This document shows positions 109 to 19,057 of a DNA stretch of 24,990 bases, in pieces (positions within the stretch are counted from its first letter, which is position 1; every line of letters starts with the position of its first letter). The notes beneath the pieces are model-generated. The model was given only the letters and a program-made list of their open reading frames with translations, did not search any database and was not told the origin of the DNA. The stretch comes from Patescibacteria group bacterium. GTDB lineage: Bacteria > Patescibacteriota > Minisyncoccia > JAHIHE01. The translations under genes were made by a program, and so were the position numbers. The stretch spans positions 1 through 24,990 of the forward strand of contig JAHIHE010000004.1 of NCBI GenBank assembly GCA_018899995.1. Reading direction: 5' to 3'.

Positions 109-1389
109 ATGAATACAGAAGCCAGAAAACAATATATGGATACCTTAAGAGAAAGATATTTTAAAGGAATCAAAAAAGAAAAAGGAGAAATTCTAAATGA
201 GTATTGCAGAAATACAAAACAAGACAGAAAATATGCCATCAAAAAATTCAACTACAAGATAAAACCTAAAAGCAAAGAAGATAGAAAAAACAGAGCTTGT
301 TTTTATGATGGCAATGTTATCGTCGTTTTAGTTGAGATTTGGAAAATATTTGATTATCCTTGCGGACAAACCCCGTTAGAAATGCAATTTCTAACGGGGC
401 AAAGATTGGAAGAAATTTTAGGCGTGGAAGTTGAAAATTTGCGAGCGTGGAAAGAAATCGTTTGCTCGGATGAAATTGCGGAGAAATTAAAGAAAATGAA
501 ATCCGCCACCATTGATCGCCGGCTCAATCACGAAAAAGAAGTTTTAAAATTAAAAGAAAAGTATCGCAAGAAAAGTTCTTTTCTGCTTTCCACTATTCCG
601 GTTAAAACCAGCGCTGATTTTGATAGAAATATCGTTGGCAACGAACAAGTTGATTTTGTGGAAAGTTGCGGCGCTTCCGCTTCTGGAGAATATGTCAATA
701 ATCTGTCTATTTGCGATATTTTCAGCTCTTGGTGGGAAGGCGAAGCCATAATGGGAAAAGGCCAGCAAAGAGCGCTTTCAGGACTGGATAATTGCCGGAA
801 AAGAACTCCTTTTCCTTGGCGCGAATTTCATCCGGATAACGGAACTAATCTTTTGAATTTTGCGGTTTACGCTTACGCGGAAAAAGAAAGATTAAAGTTT
901 TCTCGCTCTCGGCCATATCATAAAAATGACAATTGTTTCATTGAACAAAAAAACTCTACGCACATCCGGCAAGTAATCGGGTATCTGCGGTATGACACAC
1001 AAGAAGAGTTGGATTGTCTGAATGATCTATACCGAAATGAATTAAGGTTGTACAAGAATTTTTTTCAGCCGGTGATTAAATTGAAAAACAAAGAAAGAAC
1101 AGGCGGACATATTAAGAGAAAATACGACCGGGCAAAAACTCCTTACCGCCGATTGATTGAATCCAATCAAATATCCGCCAAAGAAAAAGAAGCGCTGACG
1201 GCAATTTATCAATCGCTTAATCCGGCAGAATTAAAAAGAACGATTGATAAAAAACTGGATAATCTTTACAAAATTTATCAGAAGAAAAAAGGTCAAGAAA
1301 ATATCAATTTAACTAACAAATTAAATCCTTCTTTAGTATCATTTTCCAGGATAGCTCAAAAAGAGGTTTTGGGTGTCATGATTAAATGA
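109..1389 (+). CDS. DDE (integrase core, rve-like) transposase
   Basis: 426 aa. Acidic triad candidates in QVDFVESCG, HPDNGTN and FIEQKN; family motifs SATIDRRL and FSRSRPYHKNDN; N-terminal KKEKGEILNEYC helix. Confidence 0.85.
   Translation: MNTEARKQYMDTLRERYFKGIKKEKGEILNEYCRNTKQDRKYAIKKFNYKIKPKSKEDRKNRACFYDGNVIVVLVEIWKIFDYPCGQTPLEMQFLTGQRLEEILGVEVENLRAWKEIVCSDEIAEKLKKMKSATIDRRLNHEKEVLKLKEKYRKKSSFLLSTIPVKTSADFDRNIVGNEQVDFVESCGASASGEYVNNLSICDIFSSWWEGEAIMGKGQQRALSGLDNCRKRTPFPWREFHPDNGTNLLNFAVYAYAEKERLKFSRSRPYHKNDNCFIEQKNSTHIRQVIGYLRYDTQEELDCLNDLYRNELRLYKNFFQPVIKLKNKERTGGHIKRKYDRAKTPYRRLIESNQISAKEKEALTAIYQSLNPAELKRTIDKKLDNLYKIYQKKKGQENINLTNKLNPSLVSFSRIAQKEVLGVMIK
367..403. repeat. 29-bp perfect palindrome flanked by CAAA direct repeats, in frame inside the transposase
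   Basis: CAAA(367-370)-CCCCGTTAGAAAT-GCA-ATTTCTAACGGGG(371-399)-CAAA(400-403); 13-bp perfect stem. Confidence 0.9.
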
Positions 1390-2525: not shown

Positions 2526-3848
2526 ATGCTTGACATAAAATTCATCAGAGAAAGCCAAAAAGAGCTTAAAAAAGCCATTAAAAACAAAGGCATTGATTTG
2601 GATTTGGATAAACTTTTGGCGGTGGACGATAAACGAGTCGGCCTTCTTCGGGAAATTGAGAAGCTGAATGCAGAGAAAAATAACATTAACAATTTAATCA
2701 GAAGTGCTAAAACCGAAAAAGAGCGAAAAAAAATTATAGAAGATGGTAGAAAAATTAAAAATAAAATTGAAACGATCGAACCGAAATTTAAGAAAATCCA
2801 GCAGGAATTTGACTTGTTGATGGCAAAAGTTCCGATTATTCCTTCGCCGGATACGCCGATTGGAAAAAACGAGGCGGACAACGCGGAAATTTATCGCTGG
2901 GGCGAAAAACCAAAACTTGCTTTCAGTCCCAAAGACCATATTGAATTGGGAAAACAGCTTGATATTTTGGATATGGAGCGCGGCAAAAAAGTCGCCGGCT
3001 ACCGCGGATATTATCTTAAAAACGAAGGCGCGCAACTGGTAATGGCGATGATGATGTACGCTTTCAATAAAATGGTCAAACGCGGCTACATCCCGATGAT
3101 TCCGCCGACGCTTGTAAAAGGATTCTCTCTTTTCGGAACGGGATATTTCAAAGGTCTAAAATACGACGACAAAGTTGACGAACTTTACCAGATAGCGGGT
3201 TCTGACAAAGAGGCCGGCGGAGCAATCAGTAAAGAAAAAAAATTTTTAGTGGGCACGGCAGAGCCGTCCTTGCTCGCTTATTACGCAGGAGAGGTTTTAA
3301 AAGAGGAAAACCTGCCGCTTAAAATTTCCGGATACAGCCAGTGCTACCGGAGCGAAATAGGAAGTTACGGAAAAGACACCAAGGGCATATACCGCGTGCA
3401 CGAATTTATGAAAATTGAACAGGTGATAATTTGCAAAGCGGACATCAAAGAAGCGGAAAAATTGCAGGAAGAAATGCTTGGAATTTCCAAAGAAATTTTG
3501 GAGGAACTGGGTTTGCTTTATCGTCAGATAATAATCTGCGCCGGAGATTTAAGCCCGGGGAAATACCGGCAGTACGATCTTGAAGTGTATTCGGCCGCGA
3601 ATGATTGGTATCGCGAATGCGGCTCGGCAAGCATTTTTTTGGATTGGCAGGCGCGCCGGCTTAATGTGAAATATGCCGATAAAGAAGGCAAGAAAAAATA
3701 TGTTTATATGCTCAATAACACCGGCTTGGCCTCGCCGCGGATTTTAATCGCAATTTTGGAAAATTACCAGCAGGCGGACGGCTCGGTGAAAATCCCGAAG
3801 GTTTTGCGGGAATATATGGGAAAGGATATAATAAGACCGAGAAAATAA
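2526..3848 (+). CDS. serS: Seryl-tRNA synthetase
   Basis: MLDIKFIRE start, N-terminal coiled coil, GTAEP, motif 2 YRSEIGSYGKDTKGIYRVHEFMKIEQ, DWQARRL, motif 3 NNTGLASPRILIAILENYQQADGSV. Confidence 0.97.
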   Translation: MLDIKFIRESQKELKKAIKNKGIDLDLDKLLAVDDKRVGLLREIEKLNAEKNNINNLIRSAKTEKERKKIIEDGRKIKNKIETIEPKFKKIQQEFDLLMAKVPIIPSPDTPIGKNEADNAEIYRWGEKPKLAFSPKDHIELGKQLDILDMERGKKVAGYRGYYLKNEGAQLVMAMMMYAFNKMVKRGYIPMIPPTLVKGFSLFGTGYFKGLKYDDKVDELYQIAGSDKEAGGAISKEKKFLVGTAEPSLLAYYAGEVLKEENLPLKISGYSQCYRSEIGSYGKDTKGIYRVHEFMKIEQVIICKADIKEAEKLQEEMLGISKEILEELGLLYRQIIICAGDLSPGKYRQYDLEVYSAANDWYRECGSASIFLDWQARRLNVKYADKEGKKKYVYMLNNTGLASPRILIAILENYQQADGSVKIPKVLREYMGKDIIRPRK

Positions 3849-7068: not shown

Positions 7069-8613
7069 TTAATTTAAATTTTTGTCCTCGTAGTTCAACG
7101 GACAGAACACAAGCCTCCGGAGCTTGGGATGCAAGTTCGATTCTTGCCGAGGGCACCACGTAGGAAATTGCAAGGAGTTTTGGTTCGCCTCGCTTCGCTC
7201 GGCGACTAATTCGTATTCAATTTTGGGGGTAAAAACGAATTCACGATTTCGCAAAATATGGTTCGAGCCGATGTTTTTCAGAAATGTTGTCATTGCAGTC
7301 GGATTGGGAGAGGAAAGCAGATTAGCGGCTTGATTTAAGGATTTTACGAACTCACGAGCCGGTTCGAGCCAAGACAACCCTTTTGTCTCAAAGTCGGTGA
7401 TTTTTTCGGAAAGTGATATTTTTTGAGACAGCAAAGTTTGTTTTTTGGCGGCGTATTCTTCTGTGGATAAGGCGTCAGCGAGATAGATATCTAACAACTT
7501 TTGAAGTTTTGCCTCGACTTGCGCTAATTGTTCTTTCATAACACTAACCTCGCCTTGTGCGTCCTCTCTCGCTTTATCCTGCTCACTATCCAACGCCGCC
7601 AAAACCTTCTCGGTATCTTGGCTCGACAAAGAAACTTTTTGAAGGTAAGAAGTGATTTGCTCTGTTAGTGCTTCCTCTCGCAGATAATGCTTTTCTTGGC
7701 AAATACCTTTCTTTTTCGTGCAACGATAGTAGTTATGCCTTTTCTGACGCTCTCCGGTAATTGAACAACCACACGAGGCACACTTTAGTAATCCAAGAAA
7801 AGCAAAATGATGTTTTCTCACTTCTTGCACTTTTCCACGCTTCGCCATTATCTCTTGGCATTTATCAAAAAGTTTCTTTGAAATTAACGGCTCGTGTTTC
7901 CCCTCAAAAATTTCCCCTTTCCACTTCATCAAACCAAGATAGAAAATATTTTGTAGATTCTTTTGGATATTGGCGATGACAAGTGGTTTATTGAGATTTC
8001 CACGCAAACCATTTTCATTGCACCAATTTGCGAGAGAATGAAGCGTATGCCTTCCGGTGGCGTACAATTCAAACATTTTTCTAACTTCGGGAGATTTATC
8101 TGGGTCAATATCTATTCCACGAGTTTTTGGATTATTGATGTAGCCAACCGGAGCCCAGCCGGGCCATACGCCATTTCTGATTTTCTGTCGTAAACCTCGC
8201 TTCACATTCTCTCGCAAATTGTCTACAAAATATTTTGATTGGCCAAAAGCGATGTTGAGCATAAACAACCCTTGCGGTGTTGGCTCAAACCAGAAAGTGG
8301 GAAATTTGAGAGATTTAATCAAGCCGCGATCAACAAAGTGGATTATTTTTCCACCATCAACACTGTTCCTTGCCAATCTGTCCGGGTGCCACGAAATTAT
8401 TCCGTCCGCCTTGCCTTGTTCCAGAAATGACAACATTTCGGAGAACTTTGTTCGCCCAGGTTCTTTAGCAGTCTTTGCCTCACATAGCGAGGCGACAATT
8501 TCAAGTTTTTCTTTAGCGGCAAATTCTTTTAATTCAACAAGCTGGGCTTCAATACTTAAAACTTGCCTGTCATCTTTTTCTGTGCTCTTGCGAGTGTAGA
8601 TAATGTATTTCAT
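7069..8613 (-). CDS. Large serine recombinase (resolvase + recombinase + Zn-ribbon + coiled coil)
   Basis: Catalytic YTRKST, DRLARN, CASCG...YYRC zinc ribbon. The last ~30 codons (WCPRQESNL...) are the antisense of tRNA-Arg. Confidence 0.93.
   Translation of the reverse strand: MKYIIYTRKSTEKDDRQVLSIEAQLVELKEFAAKEKLEIVASLCEAKTAKEPGRTKFSEMLSFLEQGKADGIISWHPDRLARNSVDGGKIIHFVDRGLIKSLKFPTFWFEPTPQGLFMLNIAFGQSKYFVDNLRENVKRGLRQKIRNGVWPGWAPVGYINNPKTRGIDIDPDKSPEVRKMFELYATGRHTLHSLANWCNENGLRGNLNKPLVIANIQKNLQNIFYLGLMKWKGEIFEGKHEPLISKKLFDKCQEIMAKRGKVQEVRKHHFAFLGLLKCASCGCSITGERQKRHNYYRCTKKKGICQEKHYLREEALTEQITSYLQKVSLSSQDTEKVLAALDSEQDKAREDAQGEVSVMKEQLAQVEAKLQKLLDIYLADALSTEEYAAKKQTLLSQKISLSEKITDFETKGLSWLEPAREFVKSLNQAANLLSSPNPTAMTTFLKNIGSNHILRNREFVFTPKIEYELVAERSEANQNSLQFPTWCPRQESNLHPKLRRLVFCPLNYEDKNLN
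7084..7158 (+). tRNA. tRNA-Arg (anticodon CCG)
   Basis: Acceptor GTCCTCG/CGAGGGC, D-arm GTTC/GAAC, anticodon stem CAAGC/GCTTG with loop CTCCGGA (CCG at 7117-7119), T-arm GCAAG-TTCGATT-CTTGC, encoded ACCA. Confidence 0.95.
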
Positions 8614-8682
8614 ATTTTTTTCCTTTGGTTAATAATAATTTTGAAAAAATTTTCTTTTACTTTGAATTAAATTCAAAACAAA

Positions 8683-8910
8683 ACCGCCAACTGATTTTTT
8701 ACCCAAAATTCCTTACAATTTAATCGCCGAGCGAAGCGAGGCGAATCAACGAAATTTGACTTTTCCTTACTAGTGCTCTATTCTTAAAATAGTTCGAACG
8801 CATTTCGCCGCCTGCGGCGACGGCCAGCCCCCAAAATTTGAGTGGCTTCGCCGCGATCTTAAAAACTGCCAAAGAACCTGATAAAAATATCGGCTCGAAC
8901 CATATTTTTG
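8683..8910 (+). pseudogene. Fragments of a second, oppositely oriented serine recombinase gene
   Basis: 8724-8745 matches the reverse complement of 7184-7205 at 22/22 (AERSEAN). 8861-8880 matches rc 8457-8476 at 18/20 (KTAKEP). 8883-8908 matches rc 7253-7278 at 25/26 (KNIGSNHI). Confidence 0.8.
8773..8860 (+). repeat. 88-bp perfect inverted repeat, left copy
   Basis: Exact reverse complement of 10455-10542. The ORF track shows the same peptide, KIAAKPLKFWGLAVAAGGEMRSNYFKNRA, on opposite strands at both sites. Confidence 0.95.
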
Positions 8911-9034
8911 GAAAAGAAAATTTTTTCATATCTGATTCCGAATTAAGTTTCGGTTTTTTTATTTTTGAGCTATAATTTAGATAGATATGGCTAAAACAGA
9001 TAAACAGCACATTAACAAGAAAGGAGGGGGAACT

Positions 9035-10315
9035 ATGATCAGCAATATCCTGATTATCGGTAGTGGTGGAAGAGAGCATGCACTCGCATGGAAACTCGCT
9101 CAATCACCACGCATTGGCAAGTTGTATGTCGCGCCCGGAAATGGCGGCACTCGTGACATCGCTGAAAATATTGCGATTGAAGCCACAGACGCCAGGGGTT
9201 TGGCTCGTTTTGCCGAAAAGAATTCAATCAATCTAACAGTAGTCGGTCCTGACGACCCGCTTGCGTTTGGCGTAGTTGATGTTTTTCAATCTCATGGCTT
9301 ACGCATTTTCGGACCCACTCGTGTCGCGGCACAGATTGAGGCATCTAAAGCGTTTGCCAAACGACTTATGCGCGATAGCGATATTCCGACTGCGCCATTT
9401 CGGATATTTCGAAAGCATGAAAGTGCATTAGAATATGTTCGCAAACATGGGGCGCCGATTGTCGTCAAGGCGAGCGGATTGGCGCTTGGCAAAGGTGCCT
9501 ATCCTTGCAAAACACTCGCTAAAGCAGAGAAGGCTCTGGCAGAAATTATGCTTGAGCGCGCTTACAATCAAGCTGGCAACGAAGTCATCGTCGAGGAGTT
9601 TCTGAATGGGCAAGAAGTTTCAATTCACGCTCTCTGCGACGGCAAAACCTCAATCCTATTACCTACCGCGCAAGACCACAAGCCGATTTTCGACGGCGAC
9701 AAGGGCAAGAATACTGGCGGTATGGGAACAATCGCGCCCGTGCCCTGGGTTACGGATCAAACCTTGCGAGAAGTGAACGAGCAAATCGTTCGCCCGACAT
9801 TGCAAGCGCTTACGAAGAAAGGAAAGCCGTTTACTGGTTGTTTGTACCCCGGGCTAAAGATGACAGACGAGGGGCCGAAAGTGCTTGAATACAACGCAAG
9901 ATTTGGCGACCCTGAAACGCAAAGTTATATGCGACTTCTCAAAACAGATTTGCTTGATGTTTTAGACGCATGCGTTGACGGTAAACTCGCCGACCTTGCC
10001 GTTGAATGGAATTCCGGTTTCGCCGTTTGCGTTGTCCTCGCTTCGGGAGGATATCCGGGAAAGTACAAAAAGGAAATTCCGATATCAGGCATTACTGAAG
10101 CGGAGAAAATTCCCGGTGTCGTTGTTTTTCACGCTGGCACAATGTGTAGCGACCAACTTCGGACTTCCGGCGGACGCGTTCTCGGAGTTACAGCAATCGG
10201 TAAAACTCTTCAAAAAGCTCTTGATCGAGCGTACGAAGCAGTTCGCCAAATTAAGTTCAAGGATATGCAGTACCGAAAAGACATCGGTGCTAAAGCCATT
10301 GCTATGGGGTTCTAA
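9035..10315 (+). CDS. purD: Phosphoribosylamine--glycine ligase (GAR synthetase)
   Basis: IGSGGREHALAWKL, APGNGG, KASGLALGKG, QDHK...NTGGMG, EYNARFGDPETQ, TSGGRVL, YRKDIG. SD AAGGAGG at 9021-9027 favours ATG 9035. Confidence 0.97.
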   Translation: MISNILIIGSGGREHALAWKLAQSPRIGKLYVAPGNGGTRDIAENIAIEATDARGLARFAEKNSINLTVVGPDDPLAFGVVDVFQSHGLRIFGPTRVAAQIEASKAFAKRLMRDSDIPTAPFRIFRKHESALEYVRKHGAPIVVKASGLALGKGAYPCKTLAKAEKALAEIMLERAYNQAGNEVIVEEFLNGQEVSIHALCDGKTSILLPTAQDHKPIFDGDKGKNTGGMGTIAPVPWVTDQTLREVNEQIVRPTLQALTKKGKPFTGCLYPGLKMTDEGPKVLEYNARFGDPETQSYMRLLKTDLLDVLDACVDGKLADLAVEWNSGFAVCVVLASGGYPGKYKKEIPISGITEAEKIPGVVVFHAGTMCSDQLRTSGGRVLGVTAIGKTLQKALDRAYEAVRQIKFKDMQYRKDIGAKAIAMGF

Positions 10316-10341
10316 TTCCTTCGGGGATTAGAACCTTTTTT
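10308..10341 (+). terminator. Intrinsic terminator of purD
   Basis: GGTTCTAATTCC-TTCG-GGGATTAGAACC stem-loop followed by a T run. Confidence 0.75.
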
Positions 10342-10454
10342 CTTTTCCGAAAAAGAATTTGCCGCCAAAGCAGTAAATTTTTCAAGCTCATTTTTCTTGA
10401 AAAATTTACTGTAATGAGTTATGATTAACTCATTAGAAAAACTTGAAATTGTCA

Positions 10455-10542
10455 AAGATCGCGGCGAAGCCACTCAAATTTTGGGGGCTGGCCGTCGCCG
10501 CAGGCGGCGAAATGCGTTCGAACTATTTTAAGAATAGAGCAC
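10455..10542 (-). repeat. 88-bp perfect inverted repeat, right copy
   Basis: Reverse complement of 8773-8860; ends in GCAC (10539-10542). Confidence 0.95.
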
Positions 10543-10595
10543 AAATTGTAGGACATTGTATGGGGCGAAGCCTTAAATTGAGGTTCGCCACGGGA

Positions 10596-10697
10596 TCCCG
10601 GGATGAACCCGGGACAAGTAAACCCTTGCCCTGCGTTCATCGCAGGGCGTGGCGCCCCGCCCCATGATAAACACGGGGTAAACGTTCATCGCGGGGC
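10596..10697. repeat. Cluster of small GC-rich hairpins (REP-like)
   Basis: TCCCGGG-ATGAA-CCCGGGA (10596-10614); GCCCTGCG-TTCAT-CGCAGGGC (10628-10648); CCCCATG-ATAAA-CACGGGG (10660-10678), nested within GCCCCGC...GCGGGGC. Confidence 0.75.
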
Positions 10698-10715
10698 GAT
10701 TCTTGCCGAGGGCAC
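10697..10715 (+). repeat. Duplicated tRNA-Arg 3' end (att-like right boundary)
   Basis: Identical to 7138-7156 over 19 bp. Confidence 0.9.
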
Positions 10716-10782
10716 ACTAAAAAAATTTTCGATTTTCAATGACCAATTTTCAAACAATTTTTAATTTTTAAACAAAAATATT

Positions 10783-11280
10783 ATGAGCAGAACCCTTGGG
10801 GCTATAATCATACTGCTTGCGGCTTTCTGGGCGATTAACAATCCTTCTTCCGCGCCGGTTCTAAACAAATATTTGCCCGAGCCCGGAATTCTGCCGTCAA
10901 GCAAATTATACCCGGCAAAAATTCTTTACGAAGACATCCGCGCCATGCTTACTTTTGACAATCTGTCCAAAGTGAAATTGTATCTGGAGCTGGCGGACAA
11001 ACGCCTGGCGGAAATAAAAAAGCTTGAGGAAAAAGGTGATGTTAATCAAATCAAAGAAACCCTTCTGCGGTACCAAAAATTGACGGAAAAATCGCAGGAA
11101 ACGATAAATGCCGCGCGGGAGAAAACCAAAGAGTTTCAGGATAGCGCGAATAAAATCATTGACGAGGCGAAAAGCAAGGACGCAAGCACGCTTGCGGAAC
11201 TTTACGCGAAAACATCCGGAGAAATAAAAAACGCCATAAACGATTCGCTTGCTAAGATTATGAAATGGAGGACGAATTAG
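10783..11280 (+). CDS. DUF5667-like membrane-anchored helical protein
   Basis: N-terminal hydrophobic segment, then PGILPSSKLYPAK...LYLELADKRLAE, which resembles CPR DUF5667 from recall. Confidence 0.65.
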   Translation: MSRTLGAIIILLAAFWAINNPSSAPVLNKYLPEPGILPSSKLYPAKILYEDIRAMLTFDNLSKVKLYLELADKRLAEIKKLEEKGDVNQIKETLLRYQKLTEKSQETINAAREKTKEFQDSANKIIDEAKSKDASTLAELYAKTSGEIKNAINDSLAKIMKWRTN

Positions 11281-11302
11281 TGAAATAATATAAAATTAAC
11301 AT

Positions 11303-11488
11303 ATGTCTTTTTCCGAACAAGAAAAAATAAAAATCGTGAAAAGCGCTTTTCAAAAATTCGTTGACACTGTTTTAAAACTGCTTGCTGGGCAGAGGGCTTT
11401 ATTTGAGAAAATTATGAAACAAATTGAAGCGCGAAAAATCGCGGAGCATCGGGAGAAAATTAAGAATATTTTTAATTCTAATAAATAA
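11303..11488 (+). CDS. Small hypothetical protein
   Basis: 61-aa ORF, co-directional and closely spaced after 11280, with plausible composition. Confidence 0.55.
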   Translation: MSFSEQEKIKIVKSAFQKFVDTVLKLLAGQRALFEKIMKQIEARKIAEHREKIKNIFNSNK

Positions 11489-11521
11489 TAATTATTTTAA
11501 ATTTCAAAATTACTCCTTTAT

Positions 11522-11560
11522 GTCATTGCGAGGAGCCCAGCAGGGCGACGCGGCAATCTC
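11522..11560. repeat. CGTC-type REP-like element
   Basis: GTCATTGCGAGG...GACGCGGCAATCTC, the pattern of the GTCATTGCGAG/GCAATC family. Confidence 0.7.
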
Positions 11561-11645
11561 TAATTCTCAAAAGCGACACAAGAAGTCGCAATAACAAAAC
11601 AGATATAAATAATTTTAAAGTAATAATTAATTATAAAATAAAAAT

Positions 11646-12530
11646 ATGGCAGAAGAAAACAAAGAAGAAGAGTTAGAAAAAACAGTGGAACAAAAAGAAG
11701 CCCCCGTTTCTTTAGAGGGAGAACCGGAAAAAATAGAAACTTTGGATGAAGCTTTGGAAAAAGGCGAAAGAGGTAAAGAAGGAATAATAAATAAAGCGGT
11801 AAAAGAAATAGGCGACGAGAAAAAAACACTTGAAACCCACGGGGCTGATTCGGCACAAATTGGCGAATTTAATAAAGGCAGGAAAGAAGTTGAGGAGGGC
11901 GTTGCAGGGGCAGAAAAAGTTTATACCAAAGCAACCGAAGATTTAGGCGATAATAAAACAAAAACGAGGGATAAAATATTGCAAGAATTGGAAAAAATTA
12001 ATAACGAGATGGACAAGGGGTATAGAAACGGATTAGGGTTGCCGGAAACGGATAAACTTAAGAAACAAAGGGGGAAATTGCTTGATTTGCTTGGTGATAA
12101 AGATGAGAATATTGGCAGAGAAACAGGATATATAGGCAAGGGGCTGGGGCAGAAAGCGGAGAGCACAGAGGCAGGACATATAAAAGAAATTGCAGAAGAA
12201 CGACCGAATTCAGCCGTAAAAGAAGAGGTGCTTGTAAAAACAGAGGATAAGGCCGTAGAGGCGCGAACAATAAGCGAGAAAGCAAACAAGGAAATAAAAA
12301 AACTTCTTAAAGATCCGGCTTCCGAACTTTCTGTATTGATGAAGGCGGCCAATTTCAGGGAGGACTACATACAAAAATTAAAAGATGATTTAGAAAAAGC
12401 AAAAGTAAATAAGGTGGACAGGGAAGTGAGGGTAAAATTTTACGAAAAAAGTATAGCGGAACACGAAGCTACGCTGGAAAAACATAAAAAAAGAATAAAG
12501 GAAATCATAAGCAAGATAGAAGAAAAATAG
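11646..12530 (+). CDS. Hypothetical highly charged (Glu/Lys-rich) coiled-coil protein
   Basis: 294-aa ORF; no recognisable motif. Confidence 0.75.
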   Translation: MAEENKEEELEKTVEQKEAPVSLEGEPEKIETLDEALEKGERGKEGIINKAVKEIGDEKKTLETHGADSAQIGEFNKGRKEVEEGVAGAEKVYTKATEDLGDNKTKTRDKILQELEKINNEMDKGYRNGLGLPETDKLKKQRGKLLDLLGDKDENIGRETGYIGKGLGQKAESTEAGHIKEIAEERPNSAVKEEVLVKTEDKAVEARTISEKANKEIKKLLKDPASELSVLMKAANFREDYIQKLKDDLEKAKVNKVDREVRVKFYEKSIAEHEATLEKHKKRIKEIISKIEEK

Positions 12531-12563
12531 TAAGAAAATTGAAAACCGATTAGATGTTTTAAA

Positions 12564-13352
12564 ATGATGCGAAAAGAATTTTCAATGAGAATCAAAAAAA
12601 TATCGTCAAAAACGGATTACAGATGCCCGTATTTTAAAATCGTTAAAACCGGTTTTTCGATTCCCGGACAAAAGAAAACCGCTTATTGGTATCTTCTAAA
12701 GCGAGGCAACTATGTCTCTATTTTGGCAAAAGAAGGAAATTATCTTTATATGGTGGAATTATACAGATTTGCCATAGAGAAAAAATCACTGGAATTTCCG
12801 GCAGGGATTATTGAGAAAAACGAGACGCCGCGCGAGGCGGCAAAAAGAGAGCTGGAAGAGGAAACCGGCATTATCGCCAAAAAGCTTACTCTTTTGGATT
12901 GGTATTACGCTTTCATTGGAATGTCTGACTGCAAATCGTATGTTTTTTTGGCCGAGAATTTAAGTTTTAATAAACAAAAACTTGACAGAAGCGAGTTTGG
13001 AATGAAAATTAAAAAAGTAAAAATTTCCGATGTGGAGAATTTGGTACGAAAAGGAAAAATCAGGGGCGAGCACAACATAAACAGCTTTTATGTTTATAAG
13101 CTGAAAGGAAAAAAACTTATGCCTAAAAACGACCCAAACTGCAAGAATGGTTTAGATAAAAATATAATCAATAAAGAAGTTTTTGGCCGAGAAATTTCAC
13201 TTTGCCAAAAATTAAGCAATAAAAATAACGGCAAATGCGGCTGGGGCAAATGCATGGATTGCGGAGTAGTTCCACTTTTATACAAACTTCATAAAGGCAA
13301 GCTTTTGGAAGATAGTAAGGCGAAAAAAATCAAAGAAGAAATTTTTAAATAG
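12564..13352 (+). CDS. Nudix hydrolase with a C-terminal Cys-rich extension
   Basis: Nudix box GIIEKNETPREAAKRELEEETG; C-terminal CQKL...CGWGKCMDCG. Start could be ATG 12585. Confidence 0.85.
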   Translation: MMRKEFSMRIKKISSKTDYRCPYFKIVKTGFSIPGQKKTAYWYLLKRGNYVSILAKEGNYLYMVELYRFAIEKKSLEFPAGIIEKNETPREAAKRELEEETGIIAKKLTLLDWYYAFIGMSDCKSYVFLAENLSFNKQKLDRSEFGMKIKKVKISDVENLVRKGKIRGEHNINSFYVYKLKGKKLMPKNDPNCKNGLDKNIINKEVFGREISLCQKLSNKNNGKCGWGKCMDCGVVPLLYKLHKGKLLEDSKAKKIKEEIFK

Positions 13353-13419: not shown

Positions 13420-13461
13420 TGCTATAATTTTAATAGTATGGTAATATGTATTATCATACTA
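13420..13461 (+). promoter_or_regulatory. Extended -10 promoter plus 28-bp palindrome (copy 1)
   Basis: TG-C-TATAAT 13420-13428; TAGTATGGTAATATGTATTATCATACTA 13434-13461. Confidence 0.8.
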
Positions 13462-13481
13462 TTAATTATTAAATAAAAAAT

Positions 13482-13934
13482 ATGTCTAAAGTTAATCCCA
13501 TGGCATTAGACTCAAAATCCAAGATGAAATATTTGGATTTGTTATGGACATCAATTGCGCAGTTGGAAACCAGAGACGAAGTCAAGCAATTTTTTAAGGA
13601 TCTTTTAAGCGAAAGCGAGGCGATAATGCTGGCGCGGCGGATTGAGGTTGCCAAGCGTTTACTGGAAGGTGAATCTTACGATGGTATTGCGGGGGAATTA
13701 AGGGTTGGCAAAGATACGATCGGACGGGTGCAGGGATGGCTTACTTCAGGTTTTGGCGGGTATGAAAAAGCAATTAGCGGCTTTAAAAAAGAATTGGATC
13801 GCCGCTTTGGCAAGTCAATGGTAGTTGATAAAAAAGAACCATATAGCTTCGGCTGGATTAAACAAAAATATCCCTTGCAATTTTTATTGTTTAATTTACT
13901 TTCCGGCGATAAAGATTCAAAGAATAAAAAATAG
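13482..13934 (+). CDS. TrpR-like (YerC/YecD family) DNA-binding protein
   Basis: FFKDLLSESEAIMLARRIEVAKRLLEGESYDGIAGELRVGKDTIGRV. Confidence 0.85.
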   Translation: MSKVNPMALDSKSKMKYLDLLWTSIAQLETRDEVKQFFKDLLSESEAIMLARRIEVAKRLLEGESYDGIAGELRVGKDTIGRVQGWLTSGFGGYEKAISGFKKELDRRFGKSMVVDKKEPYSFGWIKQKYPLQFLLFNLLSGDKDSKNKK

Positions 13935-13945
13935 ATATTTCGTGA

Positions 13946-13973
13946 TAGTATGGTAATATGTATTATCATACTA
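13946..13973. repeat. 28-bp palindrome (copy 2)
   Basis: Identical to 13434-13461; ends 10 bp before ATG 13984. Confidence 0.95.
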
Positions 13974-13983
13974 ACAAAAATTT

Positions 13984-14412
13984 ATGATCGAAAAAACTTT
14001 AGGAAATAAAAAAGTGTACGAATTATCTAAAGAAGAATGCGAGAAATTGCTAAAAGCTGCGGATGAGGCGATGAAAAACACTTTTCCAAAAAGCAACGAT
14101 GGTTTTGCCGTTGCTTTGATGACAAAATCGGGAAATATTTATATCGGCGTTTCGTATAAATCAGACACGGAAACGTTAACCATGCATTCTGAAGCTACGG
14201 CTTTAGCGCATGCCGCGATTCATGGCGAAAAAGAAATTGTGGCAATTACTGGACCGAATTGTCATATTTGCAAACAGCTTATTTATGAAAGCAGTTTGTG
14301 TTCGGGAATTGATATTGTTGTAGTAATTGAAGAGGATGGCAAAATAAAACAAATACCAATTTCAAAAACGATGCCTTATCCGTGGCCAAGGGAATGTATG
14401 AAAATACTTTGA
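13984..14412 (+). CDS. Cytidine deaminase-fold protein
   Basis: AVALMTKSGNIYIGV, HSE (HxE) and PNCHIC zinc ligands. Confidence 0.8.
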   Translation: MIEKTLGNKKVYELSKEECEKLLKAADEAMKNTFPKSNDGFAVALMTKSGNIYIGVSYKSDTETLTMHSEATALAHAAIHGEKEIVAITGPNCHICKQLIYESSLCSGIDIVVVIEEDGKIKQIPISKTMPYPWPRECMKIL

Positions 14413-14460
14413 TACTTGGGAGTATTAAAGTATTTAATTGAGAACATTTATACACGAAGA

Positions 14461-15297
14461 ATGAAAATCAAAGAAATTAAAGTAAAATCAATTATTGTAA
14501 AATCAAATCTACCCGAGGGGGATTTTGTCATAAACCCATATATCGGATGCCAGCACGGATGTAAATATTGCTATGCGAGATTTATGAAAAGATTTACAGG
14601 CCATACGGAACCTTGGGGCTTTTTTGTTGATGTAAAAATCAACGCTTCCGATTTAATCCCGGAAGATACAAATAAATACAAAGATAAATCCATAGTAATT
14701 AGTTCCGTTACTGATCCTTATCAGCCAATTGAAAGAAAATACAAGCTCACAAGAAAAATTCTTGAAAGACTTATACCTCTCCAGCCGCATTTGAGTTTGA
14801 TGACTAAATCAGATTTAGTAATTAGAGATGTTGATTTATTTAAACAATTTAAAGATTGTCTTGTTGCGTTTTCTTTATCGGTTTTAGATGATAAAACAAG
14901 AAAAGAAATAGAACCATTATCATCTTCTGTAGATAAAAGAATAAATGCTCTAAAAAATCTTCATAAAGCTAATATCCCAACAGCCCTTTTTATTTCACCA
15001 ATCTTTCCAGAAATAACCGATTGGAAAAAAATAATCAACAAAACAAAATCTTTTGTAGGTGAATATTGGTTTGAAAACCTAAACCTTTATTCGTCTATCA
15101 AAAACGGGATTTATAGATTTTTAAGGGAAAATAAACCTGAACTTGTGGAGAAATATAAAAAAATCTATTCAAAAGATAGCAATTATTGGAATATTGAAGA
15201 AAATAACATAAACGAATTCTGTAAAAAGAATAAACTTAATTGCAGAATTTATTTTCATCATAAAACCAACCATGTTCAGCAACCCCTTAAAAATTAA
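14461..15297 (+). CDS. Radical SAM protein, SplB/DNA-repair photolyase-like
   Basis: NPYIGCQHGCKYCYA (CxxxCxxC), SSVTDPYQPIE, MTKSDLVIRD. ATG 14461 chosen over the upstream TTG. Confidence 0.85.
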   Translation: MKIKEIKVKSIIVKSNLPEGDFVINPYIGCQHGCKYCYARFMKRFTGHTEPWGFFVDVKINASDLIPEDTNKYKDKSIVISSVTDPYQPIERKYKLTRKILERLIPLQPHLSLMTKSDLVIRDVDLFKQFKDCLVAFSLSVLDDKTRKEIEPLSSSVDKRINALKNLHKANIPTALFISPIFPEITDWKKIINKTKSFVGEYWFENLNLYSSIKNGIYRFLRENKPELVEKYKKIYSKDSNYWNIEENNINEFCKKNKLNCRIYFHHKTNHVQQPLKN

Positions 15298-16795
15298 AGT
15301 AATTGTTGACAAGAGTCATCTTTTTACCTTGGGCGAAAAAATGTATCGCGAAAGCATTGAGTTTGTGCGCGAGTTGATCAATAACGCTTACGACGCCGAC
15401 GCAACTCTGGTTTATATGACAATCAGCGATGATAAAATTACAGTGGAAGACAATGGCAGCGGCATCAATGAAAAAGGGCTGGAGCAATTTTTCACCATTG
15501 GCTCGGAAGAAAAAAGAATTAGGAATGTTTCTCCCCGCTTCGGCCGAAAAAGAATCGGGCAGTTTGGAATTGGCAAATTTTCGGCGCTTTCTATAGCGGA
15601 CCAATTCATTGTGCAGAGCGTTAGGGGTAAGTATAAATATTCAGTCGTATTTGACAGAAATGATTGGAAAAAATCCGAGAGCTGGGAATTGCCGATCAAG
15701 AAAGAAAAAACCATGCCTTTTGATAAGGAAGGCACAAAAGTGATTTTGAACAAATTAACAAAGAAAGTCAATGTGGCTGAAGTGGAAAAATATCTAAAGC
15801 AGTCCGTGCCTCTACGCGCTAGAAAATTCAGCATTTACTTAAACAACAAAAAAATAACAGCCAAAGTTATTACCGGCAAGGTTATTCCAATAAATATAAA
15901 AACAATGTATGGGTTGATTGAAGGGGAAATAGTTGTGGCGCTAAACGCTCAGGATGTTGACGAACCCGGCGTTGAATGCCGGGTTAAGCAGGTATTTATC
16001 AAGCGGGAGTTGTTTGGCCTTGAAAAAAAATATCATCAGGGGCTATCGCGGATTGCGGGGAGCGTGAACGCCGATTTTCTGCCGCTCATTTCCGCCCGCA
16101 GCGATTTTATTGTTGACAAGCCGGAGTATAAATTATTTTATCAGCTTTTGCAGACGGAATTAGACAAAGTTCTTCACGACCTAAAAAAGCAAAGCGATAC
16201 CAAAAATATTCAGAAAATTACCAAAGAGCTTCAGCAAATAATGAAGCAAATAAGAGAAGCATTAATACTTAATCCAGATTTTACGCCTCAAGGCATGGCC
16301 GTTACTCGTCTCAAGAAGGAAGGAAGAAAAAATATCGCGGCGGCCAGCGCCGATCTGACACCCGAATATCAGTCCGATTCTACCAGCAAAAAAGAACAAG
16401 AGAGTAAAAAGGCGAAAAAAGACGATGGGGAAAATAAAACCTCAGAAGCGGCGGACAAAACAGATAAAAAAGATAAATTAGAGGAAGATAAAATTAAAGT
16501 CAAGCCGCTGGTGATGAAAAAAATCAGACTGCAAAAGCTGGGTATTTCCTGCGGAATAGTCGGTCTGGGTGAAAAAGGTCCTGAAGTAATAAGCCAAGGC
16601 AATGCCGTCTATATCAATCAAGATCACCCGACTTATCAAAAATTATACAAGAAAAAAAATTCGCTTGGATTGCACTTACTGCGATTGATCACTCAAGAAG
16701 TTGTTCTAATGAAAAAACTCCGCATCACCGCCCGTGAAGCGTTTGAATGGCAAAGTAAGCTGTTAAAAGACGCGATTTGCGAAGCAAAGAAGTGA
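15272..16795 (+). CDS. GHKL (HSP90/MORC-like) ATPase
   Basis: N-box ELINNAYDADA, G1 EDNGSGI, G2 IGQFGIGKFS, GTKV; charged linker; C-terminal INQDHP. Overlaps the 3' end of the radical SAM gene. Confidence 0.85.
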   Translation: MFSNPLKIKVIVDKSHLFTLGEKMYRESIEFVRELINNAYDADATLVYMTISDDKITVEDNGSGINEKGLEQFFTIGSEEKRIRNVSPRFGRKRIGQFGIGKFSALSIADQFIVQSVRGKYKYSVVFDRNDWKKSESWELPIKKEKTMPFDKEGTKVILNKLTKKVNVAEVEKYLKQSVPLRARKFSIYLNNKKITAKVITGKVIPINIKTMYGLIEGEIVVALNAQDVDEPGVECRVKQVFIKRELFGLEKKYHQGLSRIAGSVNADFLPLISARSDFIVDKPEYKLFYQLLQTELDKVLHDLKKQSDTKNIQKITKELQQIMKQIREALILNPDFTPQGMAVTRLKKEGRKNIAAASADLTPEYQSDSTSKKEQESKKAKKDDGENKTSEAADKTDKKDKLEEDKIKVKPLVMKKIRLQKLGISCGIVGLGEKGPEVISQGNAVYINQDHPTYQKLYKKKNSLGLHLLRLITQEVVLMKKLRITAREAFEWQSKLLKDAICEAKK

Positions 16796-16846
16796 TTTTG
16801 CTTGGCTGTATTTGAGGTTGTGTCTTGTGTTCACTATGACGCTATG

Positions 16847-16874
16847 TGTTTTGTAATTTCAAAATTACAAAACA
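16847..16874. terminator. AT-rich perfect hairpin in a convergent intergenic region
   Basis: TGTTTTGTAATTT-CA-AAATTACAAAACA. Confidence 0.4.
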
Positions 16875-16882
16875 GTTTTAAG

Positions 16883-16910
16883 TAGTATGGTAATATGTAT
16901 TATCATACTA
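16883..16910. repeat. 28-bp palindrome (copy 3)
   Basis: Identical to copies 1 and 2; lies between two convergent 3' ends. Confidence 0.95.
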
Positions 16911-17045
16911 TTAGCTTTTAAAATAAATAATAAGATAAATAAACTGGTTTCTGAATTTAAAAAAAGAAAGTGAAAATTTAAAAATAGATGTCTCTAAAAA
17001 TTATTTAAATAAAACTAAATTAAAAAATAAAAAAAGCAGAAAGGA

Positions 17046-17282
17046 CTAATAATGTCTTTCTGCGTGAACAACTATTTCAGGTGTAAAACTATAGAGTCCG
17101 GTAATAATTTGCTTTGTTACTTTTAACACTTTTATTGCCGTATAGTTGCCAGATTTGATAGTTAGCGAAGGAAATTCTACCACATCCCCTTCTTTAAAAA
17201 AAACACTATCTGCTTCTGTTGTTATTTTTTCCGGTAAGTTTTCATCTCTTTTTATATCTATATAAATTTTTACCAGTACCAT
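17046..17282 (-). CDS. Small hypothetical protein
   Basis: 78 aa; GGAGGTG-like SD upstream; starts 14 bp after the elp3 stop. Confidence 0.6.
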   Translation of the reverse strand: MVLVKIYIDIKRDENLPEKITTEADSVFFKEGDVVEFPSLTIKSGNYTAIKVLKVTKQIITGLYSFTPEIVVHAERHY

Positions 17283-17296
17283 TTTTTCACCTCCAT

Positions 17297-19057
17297 TTAC
17301 AAAGACTTTACCATATATTCATCTTTTAGTCCATACCCCAGTTTTCGATAATAATCGCGGACTCCCACTCCGGAGATAACCGCGATTTTTTTTATTTTAA
17401 ATTCGTCACGCGCGATTCTTTCGGCTTCGGCGATTAATTGCTTGCCAAGTCCGATATGTTGGGCTGCTGTTTTTGATTTCTTCGCAATCGGCACGGTTTG
17501 GCCATAGGTATGCACTTCGCGGATAATCGCCGCGTTTTGTAAGGCGCCAATAAAATGTTTTTTAGAAGGCTTGTCCTCCGAAGCCCGAAAGGCGAAGGAG
17601 GGGATTCGTAGGCGCAAAAGCGCGAATAATTTATCTTTTTTAGTATCCTCAAAAGATAAAAATATTTCTTTTCCGCCAGACGCATTATAATTTCGCCTAA
17701 CAATTTTCAAACTTTTCACTTTAACTTTTTGCGCCCGAGGCGCATCCGCCTTTGGCGGAAACTTTTCACTTTTAACTTCTTTGATTTCTCGGCAGCGGAT
17801 ACAGCGGCAACGCAGAACATCTTGGCGTGTTTTTTGTTCAATAATTTGCCTAAGATTGGAAATCTTGCTTCCGGCAATAATGCTTTGTGCGGGAATATCG
17901 CGCACAAGCCGCATAATTCGGACATACGGTGGAATGCCTTTTTTAATGTCAATCAAAAGGTTAAGAAGTTTTTTGTCCGAATACGGCTTGTATTTGCCCC
18001 GTTTCCACCAATTGTAAAGCTTGGAATTTTTGACCACGACAGTCGGGTAAATTTTTAAAATGTCCGGCTGAAAATCGGGATTGGCGAATATTTCCTTAAA
18101 CATTTTTTTGTCGCGGACCATTGTCGCGCCGGGCAAGTTGGGCATCAAGTGATAGTTTATTTTAAACCCGGCATCTTTCAAAAGTTTTGTCGCACAAATT
18201 GTTTGGCTGACATTATGCCCGCGCCTGTTTAGTTTCAAAACATCATCGTAAATGCTTTGTACTCCCAGCTCAACGCGCGTTCCCCCAAGTTCGCGGAGTT
18301 TAAGAATTTCTTTTTCGTTTATATAATCCGGCCGAGTTTCAACGGTTATTCCCACAATTCTATGTTTCGCTTTTTCGTTCAGCTGCTGCGCTTTTTTTAG
18401 CGTTTGTGATTTAGAATTTGGGGTTTGTCCCTCGACTCCGCTCGGGATGGTGAGCATGTCAAACCATTTGGGATTTGTGATTTGCTTGCCCGCCATAGCT
18501 TTAGCGAAGGTGGGGGCTTTGGAATTTGCGGCAAAAGTATTTGCCGATTGATAGCATCTTTTAACAAACCACAACCGGTATTTATCAGGCAATGATCCGA
18601 ATGTTCCGCCGATAATTATTAGTTCTATCTTGTCAATTGGGTGTCCGGAATTTTCCAGCGCCTGAAGCCGCATTTTTACCTGTTTATACGGGTCAAATTT
18701 GTTTAAAATGGCGCGCATCACCGCCGGCTCGTTGGAAAGATAACTTTTTGGCATTCCTTTTTCCGTGGGGCAATAAAGGCATTTTCCCGGACAGCCAAAG
18801 TCCTTTGTAAGCACAGCAACCACAACTACGCCGGATTGGGAGCGGACTTTGCGCACTTTTAGCAGATTTTCAATGCTGGCGCTCCTTTTGGTTTCACCGT
18901 TTTTTATCATTGAATAATACGCTTTGAGGAGTATAATGTTTGTAGGGATTTTTACCTTATTTTTCTTGGAAAAATTTCGCTTCAATGCAGAAAGAGCATC
19001 AGGTGTGCTGATTTTTTCTTTGATAATTTCTTTGATAATTTGGCGGTTAATAGTCAT
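17297..19057 (-). CDS. elp3: Elp3-family radical SAM/GNAT tRNA wobble-uridine modification enzyme
   Basis: CPGKCLYCP, GGTF, ETRPD, ELGVQS, LKIYPT, CRCIRCRE, REVHTYG, QHIGLGKQL, ISGVGVRDYYRKLGY. Confidence 0.93.
   Translation of the reverse strand: MTINRQIIKEIIKEKISTPDALSALKRNFSKKNKVKIPTNIILLKAYYSMIKNGETKRSASIENLLKVRKVRSQSGVVVVAVLTKDFGCPGKCLYCPTEKGMPKSYLSNEPAVMRAILNKFDPYKQVKMRLQALENSGHPIDKIELIIIGGTFGSLPDKYRLWFVKRCYQSANTFAANSKAPTFAKAMAGKQITNPKWFDMLTIPSGVEGQTPNSKSQTLKKAQQLNEKAKHRIVGITVETRPDYINEKEILKLRELGGTRVELGVQSIYDDVLKLNRRGHNVSQTICATKLLKDAGFKINYHLMPNLPGATMVRDKKMFKEIFANPDFQPDILKIYPTVVVKNSKLYNWWKRGKYKPYSDKKLLNLLIDIKKGIPPYVRIMRLVRDIPAQSIIAGSKISNLRQIIEQKTRQDVLRCRCIRCREIKEVKSEKFPPKADAPRAQKVKVKSLKIVRRNYNASGGKEIFLSFEDTKKDKLFALLRLRIPSFAFRASEDKPSKKHFIGALQNAAIIREVHTYGQTVPIAKKSKTAAQHIGLGKQLIAEAERIARDEFKIKKIAVISGVGVRDYYRKLGYGLKDEYMVKSL
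17570..17602 (-). repeat. 33-bp in-frame palindromic insert in elp3 (PSFAFRASEDK)
   Basis: Minus strand CCCTCCTTCGCCTTTCGGGCTTCGGAGGACAAG; removing it restores RLRI-PSKK. Confidence 0.8.
17730..17759 (-). repeat. 30-bp double-hairpin insert in elp3
   Basis: TGCGCC-CGA-GGCGCA abutting TCCGCC-TTT-GGCGGA, flanked by 14-bp direct repeats AAACTTTTCACTTT (17709, 17759). Confidence 0.8.
18428..18514 (-). repeat. Two palindromic inserts embedded in CAAAT-heptamer repeats in elp3
   Basis: 18428-18466 (minus TGGTTTGACATGCTCACCATCCCGAGCGGAGTCGAGGGA) and 18485-18514 (minus CCCACCTTCGCTAAAGCTATGGCGGGCAAG). Confidence 0.75.

Follow-up and report, generated by a model that had tools for sequence, protein, structure and literature searches.

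The 24,990-nt stretch examined here (the window: positions 1 to 24,990 of contig JAHIHE010000004.1, assembly GCA_018899995.1) comes from a groundwater Patescibacteria genome and carries three exact copies of a 28-bp palindrome, TAGTATGGTAATATGTATTATCATACTA, two of which bracket a gene for a YerC-like regulator of the TrpR/HisR kind. We hold, with a probability of roughly 60%, that the 28-mer is the cognate DNA site, or operator, of the regulator it brackets, within a genome-wide system comprising several paralogous regulators, which is apparently undescribed in the searchable literature. The genome (G000, in which the window is contig C160) amounts to 1.02 Mb in 164 contigs with 39.7% GC and is 96% complete; relatives and contigs are cited below by similar numbers.

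All three copies were found on the plus strand with 0 mismatches, and the first-pass annotation, which had reported three identical palindromes with 13-bp arms and one mismatch, proved exact in both positions and spacings (Table 1). The 28-mer is composed of 13-bp arms around a 2-nt TG centre, with G8 opposite T21 as the single arm mismatch, and the start-to-start distance is 512 bp from copy 1 to copy 2 and 2937 bp from copy 2 to copy 3. Even with up to 3 mismatches allowed, 0 matches were obtained in 100 dinucleotide-preserving shuffles of the window. At copy 1 the symmetry reaches 17-bp arms (13430-13465); this copy begins 5 nt past a putative extended -10-like box (TGCTATAAT) and ends 20 nt ahead of the ATG of the yerC-like gene, and would span about +1 to +28 of the yerC transcript. 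Copy 2 occupies most of the 49-nt gap between yerC and a deaminase gene, 11 nt past the stop codon of the former and 10 nt ahead of the ATG of the latter, and copy 3 lies between two convergent 3' ends, 87 nt beyond the stop codon of a GHKL-ATPase gene (16795) and 135 nt from that of a convergent 78-aa open reading frame (ORF; 17046).

The bracketed protein matches PF01371 (Trp_repressor) over residues 18-98 with 52.1 bits against a cut-off of 27, and a profile of 10 homologues matches the structures 3FRW, 3KOR and 3G1C in the PDB over residues 11-105 with E-values of 1e-15 to 1e-17, placing it in the family. It is not a small single-domain protein of ~100 aa: of its 150 aa, residues ~106-150 form a conserved extension (PYSFGW.KQKYPL.FLLFNL) for which no match was found in PDB or Pfam, and which is of low confidence in an AlphaFold2 (AF2) model with a pLDDT of 57.8. 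Its recognition helix reads VGKDTIGRVQG.

The link between protein and palindrome rests on two directly computed patterns, namely the bracketing of yerC paralogues by palindromes of their own type and the co-variation of palindrome and recognition helix. Three full yerC-like genes are present in G000, on C160, C100 and C19, and the contigs C74 and C120 each carry a C-terminal fragment at one end. The genes on C160 and C100 are flanked on both sides by type A, that on C19 by GCTATGATGCT...AGCATCATAGC, and the fragments are followed by a further palindrome type, CACTATGATACATCCATGTATCATAGTG. In relatives, and at 16 further loci from distant Patescibacteria, yerC is again located between two copies of one palindrome, whose sequence varies by locus. 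Type A accompanies the helix VGKDTIGRVQ in three proteins, including one just 67% identical overall, and VGTDTISRVQQ pairs with ACTTTGATACTTGGGAGTTTCAAAGT in two genomes, while paralogues that are 78% identical but bear other helices pair with other palindromes. Across 19 protein-palindrome pairs, palindrome similarity correlated with helix similarity when the rest of the protein was controlled for (partial rho 0.30, permutation p 0.0015), and the converse partial correlation, with the rest of the protein, was 0.06. From this co-variation we infer sequence-specific DNA binding by the YerC-like protein, and the earlier proposal that the palindrome is the operator of a YerC/TrpR-like protein is thus well supported computationally.

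A genome-wide search for the 28-mer, which the first-pass annotation had called for, revealed a genome-wide element rather than a local one, with 19 matches within 3 mismatches (both strands counted) versus 0 for the reversed control. About 16 sites are of the near-identical type A, and ~21 are counted when the two main types A and B are taken together. A palindrome survey of G000 delimited a superfamily of ~38 sites with common outer arms (T[AT]TG[AG]T ... A[CT]CA[AT]A) and variable inner arms, and the motif is present in 16 of 41 relatives. Around 15 of the 21 type A and B sites in G000 are situated 4-60 nt before a start codon, and four sites are arrayed between successive genes on C117.

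The genes adjacent to sites in G000 include two yerC paralogues, the block of deaminase, radical SAM (rSAM) and GHKL-ATPase genes, a paralogous pair of an rSAM remnant and a GHKL gene on C117, four Nudix hydrolases, an HD 5'-deoxynucleotidase, an HhH-GPD glycosylase, FemAB, an LD-carboxypeptidase and an alpha/beta hydrolase, and further a prephenate dehydratase, DUF711, an N6 DNA methylase and a reverse transcriptase. Those in relatives encode RecQ (twice), RarA/MgsA, a 5'-3' exonuclease, an AlkD-like protein, Mrr, MazG, SNF2, KilA-N and nucleotide kinases. The theme of these neighbours is DNA repair and nucleotide-pool hygiene, with some cell-wall enzymes. The 380-aa reverse transcriptase (RVT_1; G000:C92, 1502-2644) is followed 55 nt on by a type-A palindrome (2700-2727), in a convergent gap facing murJ. 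That the palindromes replace the SOS system was considered and dismissed, as C5 opens with the gene for a LexA-like protein and no such palindrome lies upstream of recA. That LexA-like protein (G000:C5:3-515, …IPVLGEANCGEA…GNSM…) has its N-terminal DNA-binding domain truncated by the contig start; the SOS network of Patescibacteria is reportedly the subject of a 2017 study by Sanchez-Osuna et al.

According to the operator reading, the type-A proteins would constitute a Patescibacteria-specific TrpR/HisR branch of 150 aa, combining a helix-turn-helix (HTH) with the conserved C-terminal extension, and the protein, presumably as a dimer or higher oligomer, would bind the palindrome. Binding at copy 1, over the predicted transcript start just past the extended -10 box, would result in autorepression. 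Copy 2 would gate the deaminase-rSAM-GHKL-ATPase block, either as an operator overlapping a promoter or as a roadblock to read-through from the yerC promoter, and copy 3, beyond the terminator-like hairpin of the block, may serve as an auxiliary site or as the source of a short or antisense transcript. The window would then be one part of a set of ~16 type-A sites ahead of accessory genes for DNA repair, nucleotide sanitation and cell-wall metabolism.

Copy 3 would stand outside the transcription unit of the block, since a separate hairpin that resembles a terminator and is followed by a U-run comes before it (the RNA fold of 16835-16945 reaches -24.9 kcal/mol, z = -4.7). Beyond it, 16911-17045 was found to contain no ORF, tRNA, Rfam match or gene remnant. 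The spacing of a TAAAAT box after copy 3 is that of the palindrome-plus-TATAAT module at C117:2536 and G003:C33, and since this module, which continues into a leader, is recurrent, a short or antisense transcript from copy 3 may be conceivable. Elsewhere, the palindrome following the GHKL gene precedes another gene. In G026 this gene encodes an Mrr endonuclease and in G003 an APH kinase; on C117 and its continuation the palindrome is followed by the alpha/beta hydrolase gene and, further on, by RecQ. Since these equivalent copies in paralogous and orthologous blocks precede a further gene and none is present here, copy 3 most plausibly represents a distal copy left stranded where a rearrangement took place. 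The continuation of C117 runs through G026:C80, where the array is extended by the alpha/beta hydrolase, a palindrome and RecQ. G000:C117:1-559 and G026:C80 share 100% identity over 559 nt in genomes of different families, which could reflect a shared or mis-binned contig or a very recent transfer.

Several observations weigh against a plain operator. Of the 16 relatives that carry type A-D sites, 10 yielded no TrpR-family gene in protein, Pfam and profile searches, among them the near-complete genomes G023 (99% complete, ~7 sites) and G026 (98% complete, ~13 sites). Two reservations attach to these absences: in both G000 and G003 yerC is found at the end of a contig, so that under-assembly may be behind some of them, and the overlap noted above between a G026 contig and a G000 contig could point to mis-binning. 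An apparent yerC remnant in G023 turned out to be a false positive, lying antisense within a long unrelated ORF; yerC pseudogenes were found in G005 and G016. The palindrome does occur at the protein's own putative promoter, but at 26-28 bp it is longer than the operators of the family, which span ~18-20 bp (20 bp in HisR and TrpR). Convergent gaps, which make up 17% of intergenic bases, hold 7 of the 28 classified superfamily sites in G000 and 8 of 44 over all loci (18-25% of sites), so there is no depletion, and the downstream palindrome of yerC itself lies between convergent 3' ends in G021:C50 and at two other loci. At 29 of 33 sites in co-directional gaps the asymmetric centre is oriented in the sense of the gene, a polarity not predicted by a symmetric operator, although its p of ~1e-5 is overstated, the copies being related to each other. 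A regulon of trp or his biosynthesis and transport genes was not found either, the sole amino-acid gene near sites being the prephenate dehydratase gene at C149:13674. A crowding of sites at upstream stop codons, perceived by eye, disappeared under a stricter gene threshold (19 vs 18).

Table 1. Features of the window locus and the two main palindrome types.
Feature	Position	Strand	Basis
Extended -10-like box TGCTATAAT of the putative yerC promoter	13420..13428	+	read from sequence
Palindrome copy 1, type A, presumed autoregulatory operator	13434..13461	+	exact match
YerC/TrpR-like HTH protein, 150 aa, conserved C-terminal extension of ~45 aa	13482..13934	+	PF01371
Palindrome copy 2, type A	13946..13973	+	exact match
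Cytidine/dCMP deaminase-like gene, 142 aa	13984..14412	+	PF00383; gene call present in public assemblies
Type-G palindrome with centre CTTGGGAG, covering the deaminase stop and preceding the radical SAM start	14402..14435	+	palindrome survey, RNA fold
SplB-like radical SAM (rSAM) gene, 278 aa	14461..15297	+	PF04055, PF20903; start from public gene calls
GHKL ATPase (HATPase_c_3), 507 aa, overlapping the rSAM gene end	15272..16795	+	Pfam
Terminator-like hairpin, 12-bp stem, then AGUUUUAAG (U-run)	16847..16874	+	RNA fold
Palindrome copy 3, type A, probable stranded distal copy between convergent 3' ends	16883..16910	+	exact match
TAAAAT, putative -10-like box, 9 nt past copy 3	16919..16924	+	spacing as in palindrome-plus-TATAAT module
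Convergent 78-aa ORF and 586-aa ELP3-like radical SAM gene, conserved right flank	17046..19057	-	586-aa gene syntenic with G003:C60
Type A palindrome, AGTATGGTAATATGTATTAYCATACT			
Type B palindrome, CACTATGATAATATGAATTATCATAGTG			

The first-pass annotation had marked out the three-gene block between copies 2 and 3 and overlooked a different, inner palindrome at 14402-14435. This type-G palindrome also flanks yerC on both sides in G021:C50 and G016:C19, and no type-G yerC was found in G000. It is kept at the deaminase/rSAM junction in G026 with its centre flipped (CTCCCAAG in G026 versus CTTGGGAG). The GHKL ATPase has a paralogue on C117 and orthologues in G026 and G003.

The further proposal, in which the palindrome has a second role as a site of insertion or recombination at the edges of cargo, gained partial and indirect comparative support from differing cargo, from the occurrence of the block elsewhere and from inserted segments, but neither a dedicated recombinase nor population variants were found. 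That cargo differs between relatives is directly visible in G003:C60, a locus of the same family as G000. There tRNA-Arg, yerC and the convergent gene of 586 aa have remained syntenic, and a 182-aa Nudix gene between the downstream palindrome of yerC and the 586-aa gene replaces the 2.9-kb block together with copy 3. A clean empty site was not found. The block itself also exists in G026, of another family, at 77.7% nucleotide identity, bounded by palindromes, with type G at the same inner junction and with unrelated neighbours. The rSAM and GHKL genes abut in the window (where they overlap) and in G026, whereas on C117 they are kept apart by a ~230-nt segment, in which a type-A palindrome occurs together with a TATAAT box and another palindrome family. 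A separate difference between the window and G003:C60 concerns the tRNA-Arg (7084-7158): the ~6 kb that follow it in the window (7159-13117) are absent from the syntenic locus. Next to the tRNA there comes an ORF of 77 aa that shares homology with the C-terminal portion of the 262-aa Nudix ORF in the window, so that the difference amounts to a tRNA-adjacent indel and a rearranged Nudix gene.

Palindromes are also encountered as parts of larger or unexpected units. A portable module, consisting of the palindrome, ~9 nt, a -10-like box and then ATGGCTTRGRATAAAGGAAAA, precedes four unrelated genes in three genomes (G000:C117:2536, G026:C6 twice and G003:C33:5054), and two of these copies run on into a TCCCTCATTCGCGCGAATGGG hairpin. 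In G000, G001 and G003 the gene for a DegT aminotransferase contains an in-frame insertion of a type-B palindrome, translated as HYDNMNYH, which neither the gene of G002 nor any more distant orthologue has. In G003:C28 three different superfamily palindromes stand in tandem at one loop of DegT, adding 42 residues relative to G000. One of the three is the type flanking G003's own yerC, and G000 and G001 have the first only. Synonymous positions within the DegT palindrome are conserved. Exact-protein look-ups on both flanks returned one fixed arrangement in all near-identical contigs from independent samples, and Logan contigs that start in copy 1 or end at copy 3 were discarded as variants because the shared 31-mer breaks the assembly graph. 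In the comparison of G001:C30 with G000:C130 for the yerC unit, C130 ends 180 nt past the last shared gene. It might be imagined, although we think it unlikely, that YerC proteins and palindromes form a self-propagating regulator-site system, in which palindromes would be copied, some with the portable promoter, to new positions between and even within genes, preferentially beside existing ones, and would serve as junctions for the gain, loss and reshuffling of accessory blocks for DNA repair and nucleotide sanitation, with the HTH protein controlling or promoting the process as its sequence-specific factor.

Three explanations compete with an operator. The palindromes might primarily be small mobile or recombinogenic elements resembling repetitive extragenic palindromic (REP) sequences or Rickettsia palindromic elements (RPEs), multiplying as existing copies are duplicated into intergenic and even coding DNA, the YerC-like protein being an element-associated binding factor, comparable to the transposase that REPs flank though based on an HTH domain, and any effect on transcription secondary. 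This would explain why the cognate palindrome is present on both sides of the gene whatever its neighbours, even when the next gene is convergent, and it agrees with the random-looking placement across intergenic classes, the in-frame DegT insertions with three types stacked in G003, the palindrome-bearing segment at the C117 junction, the sites kept in genomes without yerC, the yerC pseudogenes of G005 and G016, and the likewise multi-copy nature of other palindrome families in G000. It is nevertheless doubtful, in that the flanked protein is only an HTH and no Y1/HUH gene (PF01797), and hence no transposase of the REP-associated tyrosine transposase (RAYT) type, was found in G000; copies are few (16-38), most are near start codons and polar relative to genes, no target-site duplication was seen, and the arrangement is fixed in population contigs from several samples. 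Very improbable is a site-specific recombination site, Xer/dif-like (11-6-11) or attC-like, for the insertion and excision of circular cassettes. The sequence allows a division of the 28 bp into 11-bp arms and an asymmetric 6-bp centre, direct copies flank cargo that differs between G000 and G003, and the four-site array separates successive C117 genes. However, the single Xer-like tyrosine recombinase gene (C67:19319-19795) is unlinked to sites, neither an integron integrase context nor an integrase beside any site-bearing contig was found, neither an empty site nor a joined form was recovered, and the site sequence co-varies with an HTH protein rather than with a recombinase. An Xer/dif site was rejected as the main reading of the 28-mer, with at least 16 copies against one per replicon and a far better dif candidate on C3. 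This candidate (G000:C3:15477-15508, CAATGTCGCATAATGTAGGTTATGCGACATTG) has 11-6-11 geometry with dif-like inner arms and is a likely chromosome dimer resolution site for the lone Xer-like recombinase.

It is also improbable, though less so than the recombination site, that the element acts as a sense-orientation RNA or single-strand hairpin, for instance as a processing, stabilising or termination signal, the protein being irrelevant or RNA-binding. Every copy does fold into a hairpin of 12-13 bp with z of -3.7 to -6.5 versus shuffles, and some sites are placed at 3' ends or within convergent gaps. Such a role would account for the sense polarity (29 of 33) and for the arm mismatch, which is a G-U pair on the sense strand and an A-C mismatch on the antisense strand, but not for the identity within a type of sequence and not just structure, nor for the match of discrete types to the recognition helix, nor for the type-G centre flipped at an orthologous position. 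A-C combinations are also found, a consistent U-run is lacking, copy 3 comes behind a separate terminator-like hairpin, and no Rfam family was matched.

G000 is unusually rich in repeated palindromes beyond those discussed above. A member of the superfamily, TACTATGATTCTTGGAAGAATCATAGTA, is found in the window at 2394-2421 (and 2418-2444), again at C161:6187 and as a variant at C12:264, and the window copy at 2394-2421 is directly followed by a GC-containing terminator-like hairpin. Not related to it is the multi-copy palindrome CCCCGTTAGAAATGCAATTTCTAACGGGG, which occupies window positions 371-399 and at least 12 other places in G000. A second family, CCGCCTTCGGCGGRYCCGCCGAAGGCGG, is represented at least 15 times, and many copies of ACTTGGAAACCWGGTTTCCAAGT exist, partly in tandem. 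On C21, four copies of TGTTTCACGTGAAACA, the canonical parS sequence, are present at 3211, 3908, 4279 and 4796, inside 1.6 kb.

Hardly anything is known of how the uncultivated, ultra-small Patescibacteria regulate their genes. The system described here offers a concrete, testable protein-site pair whose specificity can be read as a code, the recognition helix being set against the inner arm of the palindrome, as well as a candidate regulon of DNA-repair, nucleotide-pool and cell-wall genes. It goes beyond an ordinary operator in the bracketing of the regulator, the polarity, the copies in promoter-less gaps and in frame, the portable promoter module and the persistence without a regulator. 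If palindromes indeed drive the gain and loss of blocks, they would represent a new route for the reshuffling of accessory genes in very small genomes, and, if the system is self-propagating, a logic like that of REP/RAYT or of integrons would be realized on a repressor fold without a known recombinase.

The YerC-palindrome system would be a version of the TrpR/HisR repressor-operator kind. HisR proteins, to which B. subtilis YerC and its orthologues belong, are validated palindrome-binding repressors of <100 aa, often autoregulated, with 20-bp sites and his genes as targets (PMC9413887). Like HisR and E. coli TrpR, the window protein belongs to PF01371, resembles the YerC/HisR structures 3FRW, 3KOR and 3G1C in sequence, and has a palindrome at what may be its own promoter, where it would autoregulate, the motif being lineage-specific and changing with the protein (PMC9413887). 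It differs in its 150 aa with a conserved C-terminal extension (HisR <100 aa), in sites of 26-28 bp instead of 20, and in its neighbours, which are not his or trp targets but Nudix, MazG, HD, deaminase, rSAM, GHKL, RecQ, RarA, glycosylase and cell-wall genes. It differs also in having several paralogues per genome with distinct site types, in a gene bracketed on both sides, and in sites placed in convergent gaps and in frame inside genes.

With the REP/RAYT systems (REPtrons) are shared short, dispersed and polar extragenic palindromes, a gene between two copies and a separate palindrome family for each paralogue; the flanked gene here encodes an HTH protein and not a Y1/HUH transposase, copies number tens and not hundreds, and many stand just before start codons. 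The Rickettsia palindromic elements are likewise known as in-frame palindromes inserted and retained in conserved enzyme genes, yet they measure ~100-150 bp versus 28 bp, whereas most of the palindromes described here are intergenic, with a sequence linked to one particular DNA-binding protein. Acinetobacter pdif modules and integron cassettes resemble the present system in that short conserved sites bound gene blocks whose combinations differ between genomes, and are distinguished from it by a linked recombinase, by the alternation of XerC/XerD orientation and by attC architecture, none of which was found here, nor were excision products seen. Moreover, attC sites are conserved mainly in structure, while the palindromes of this system are conserved in sequence.

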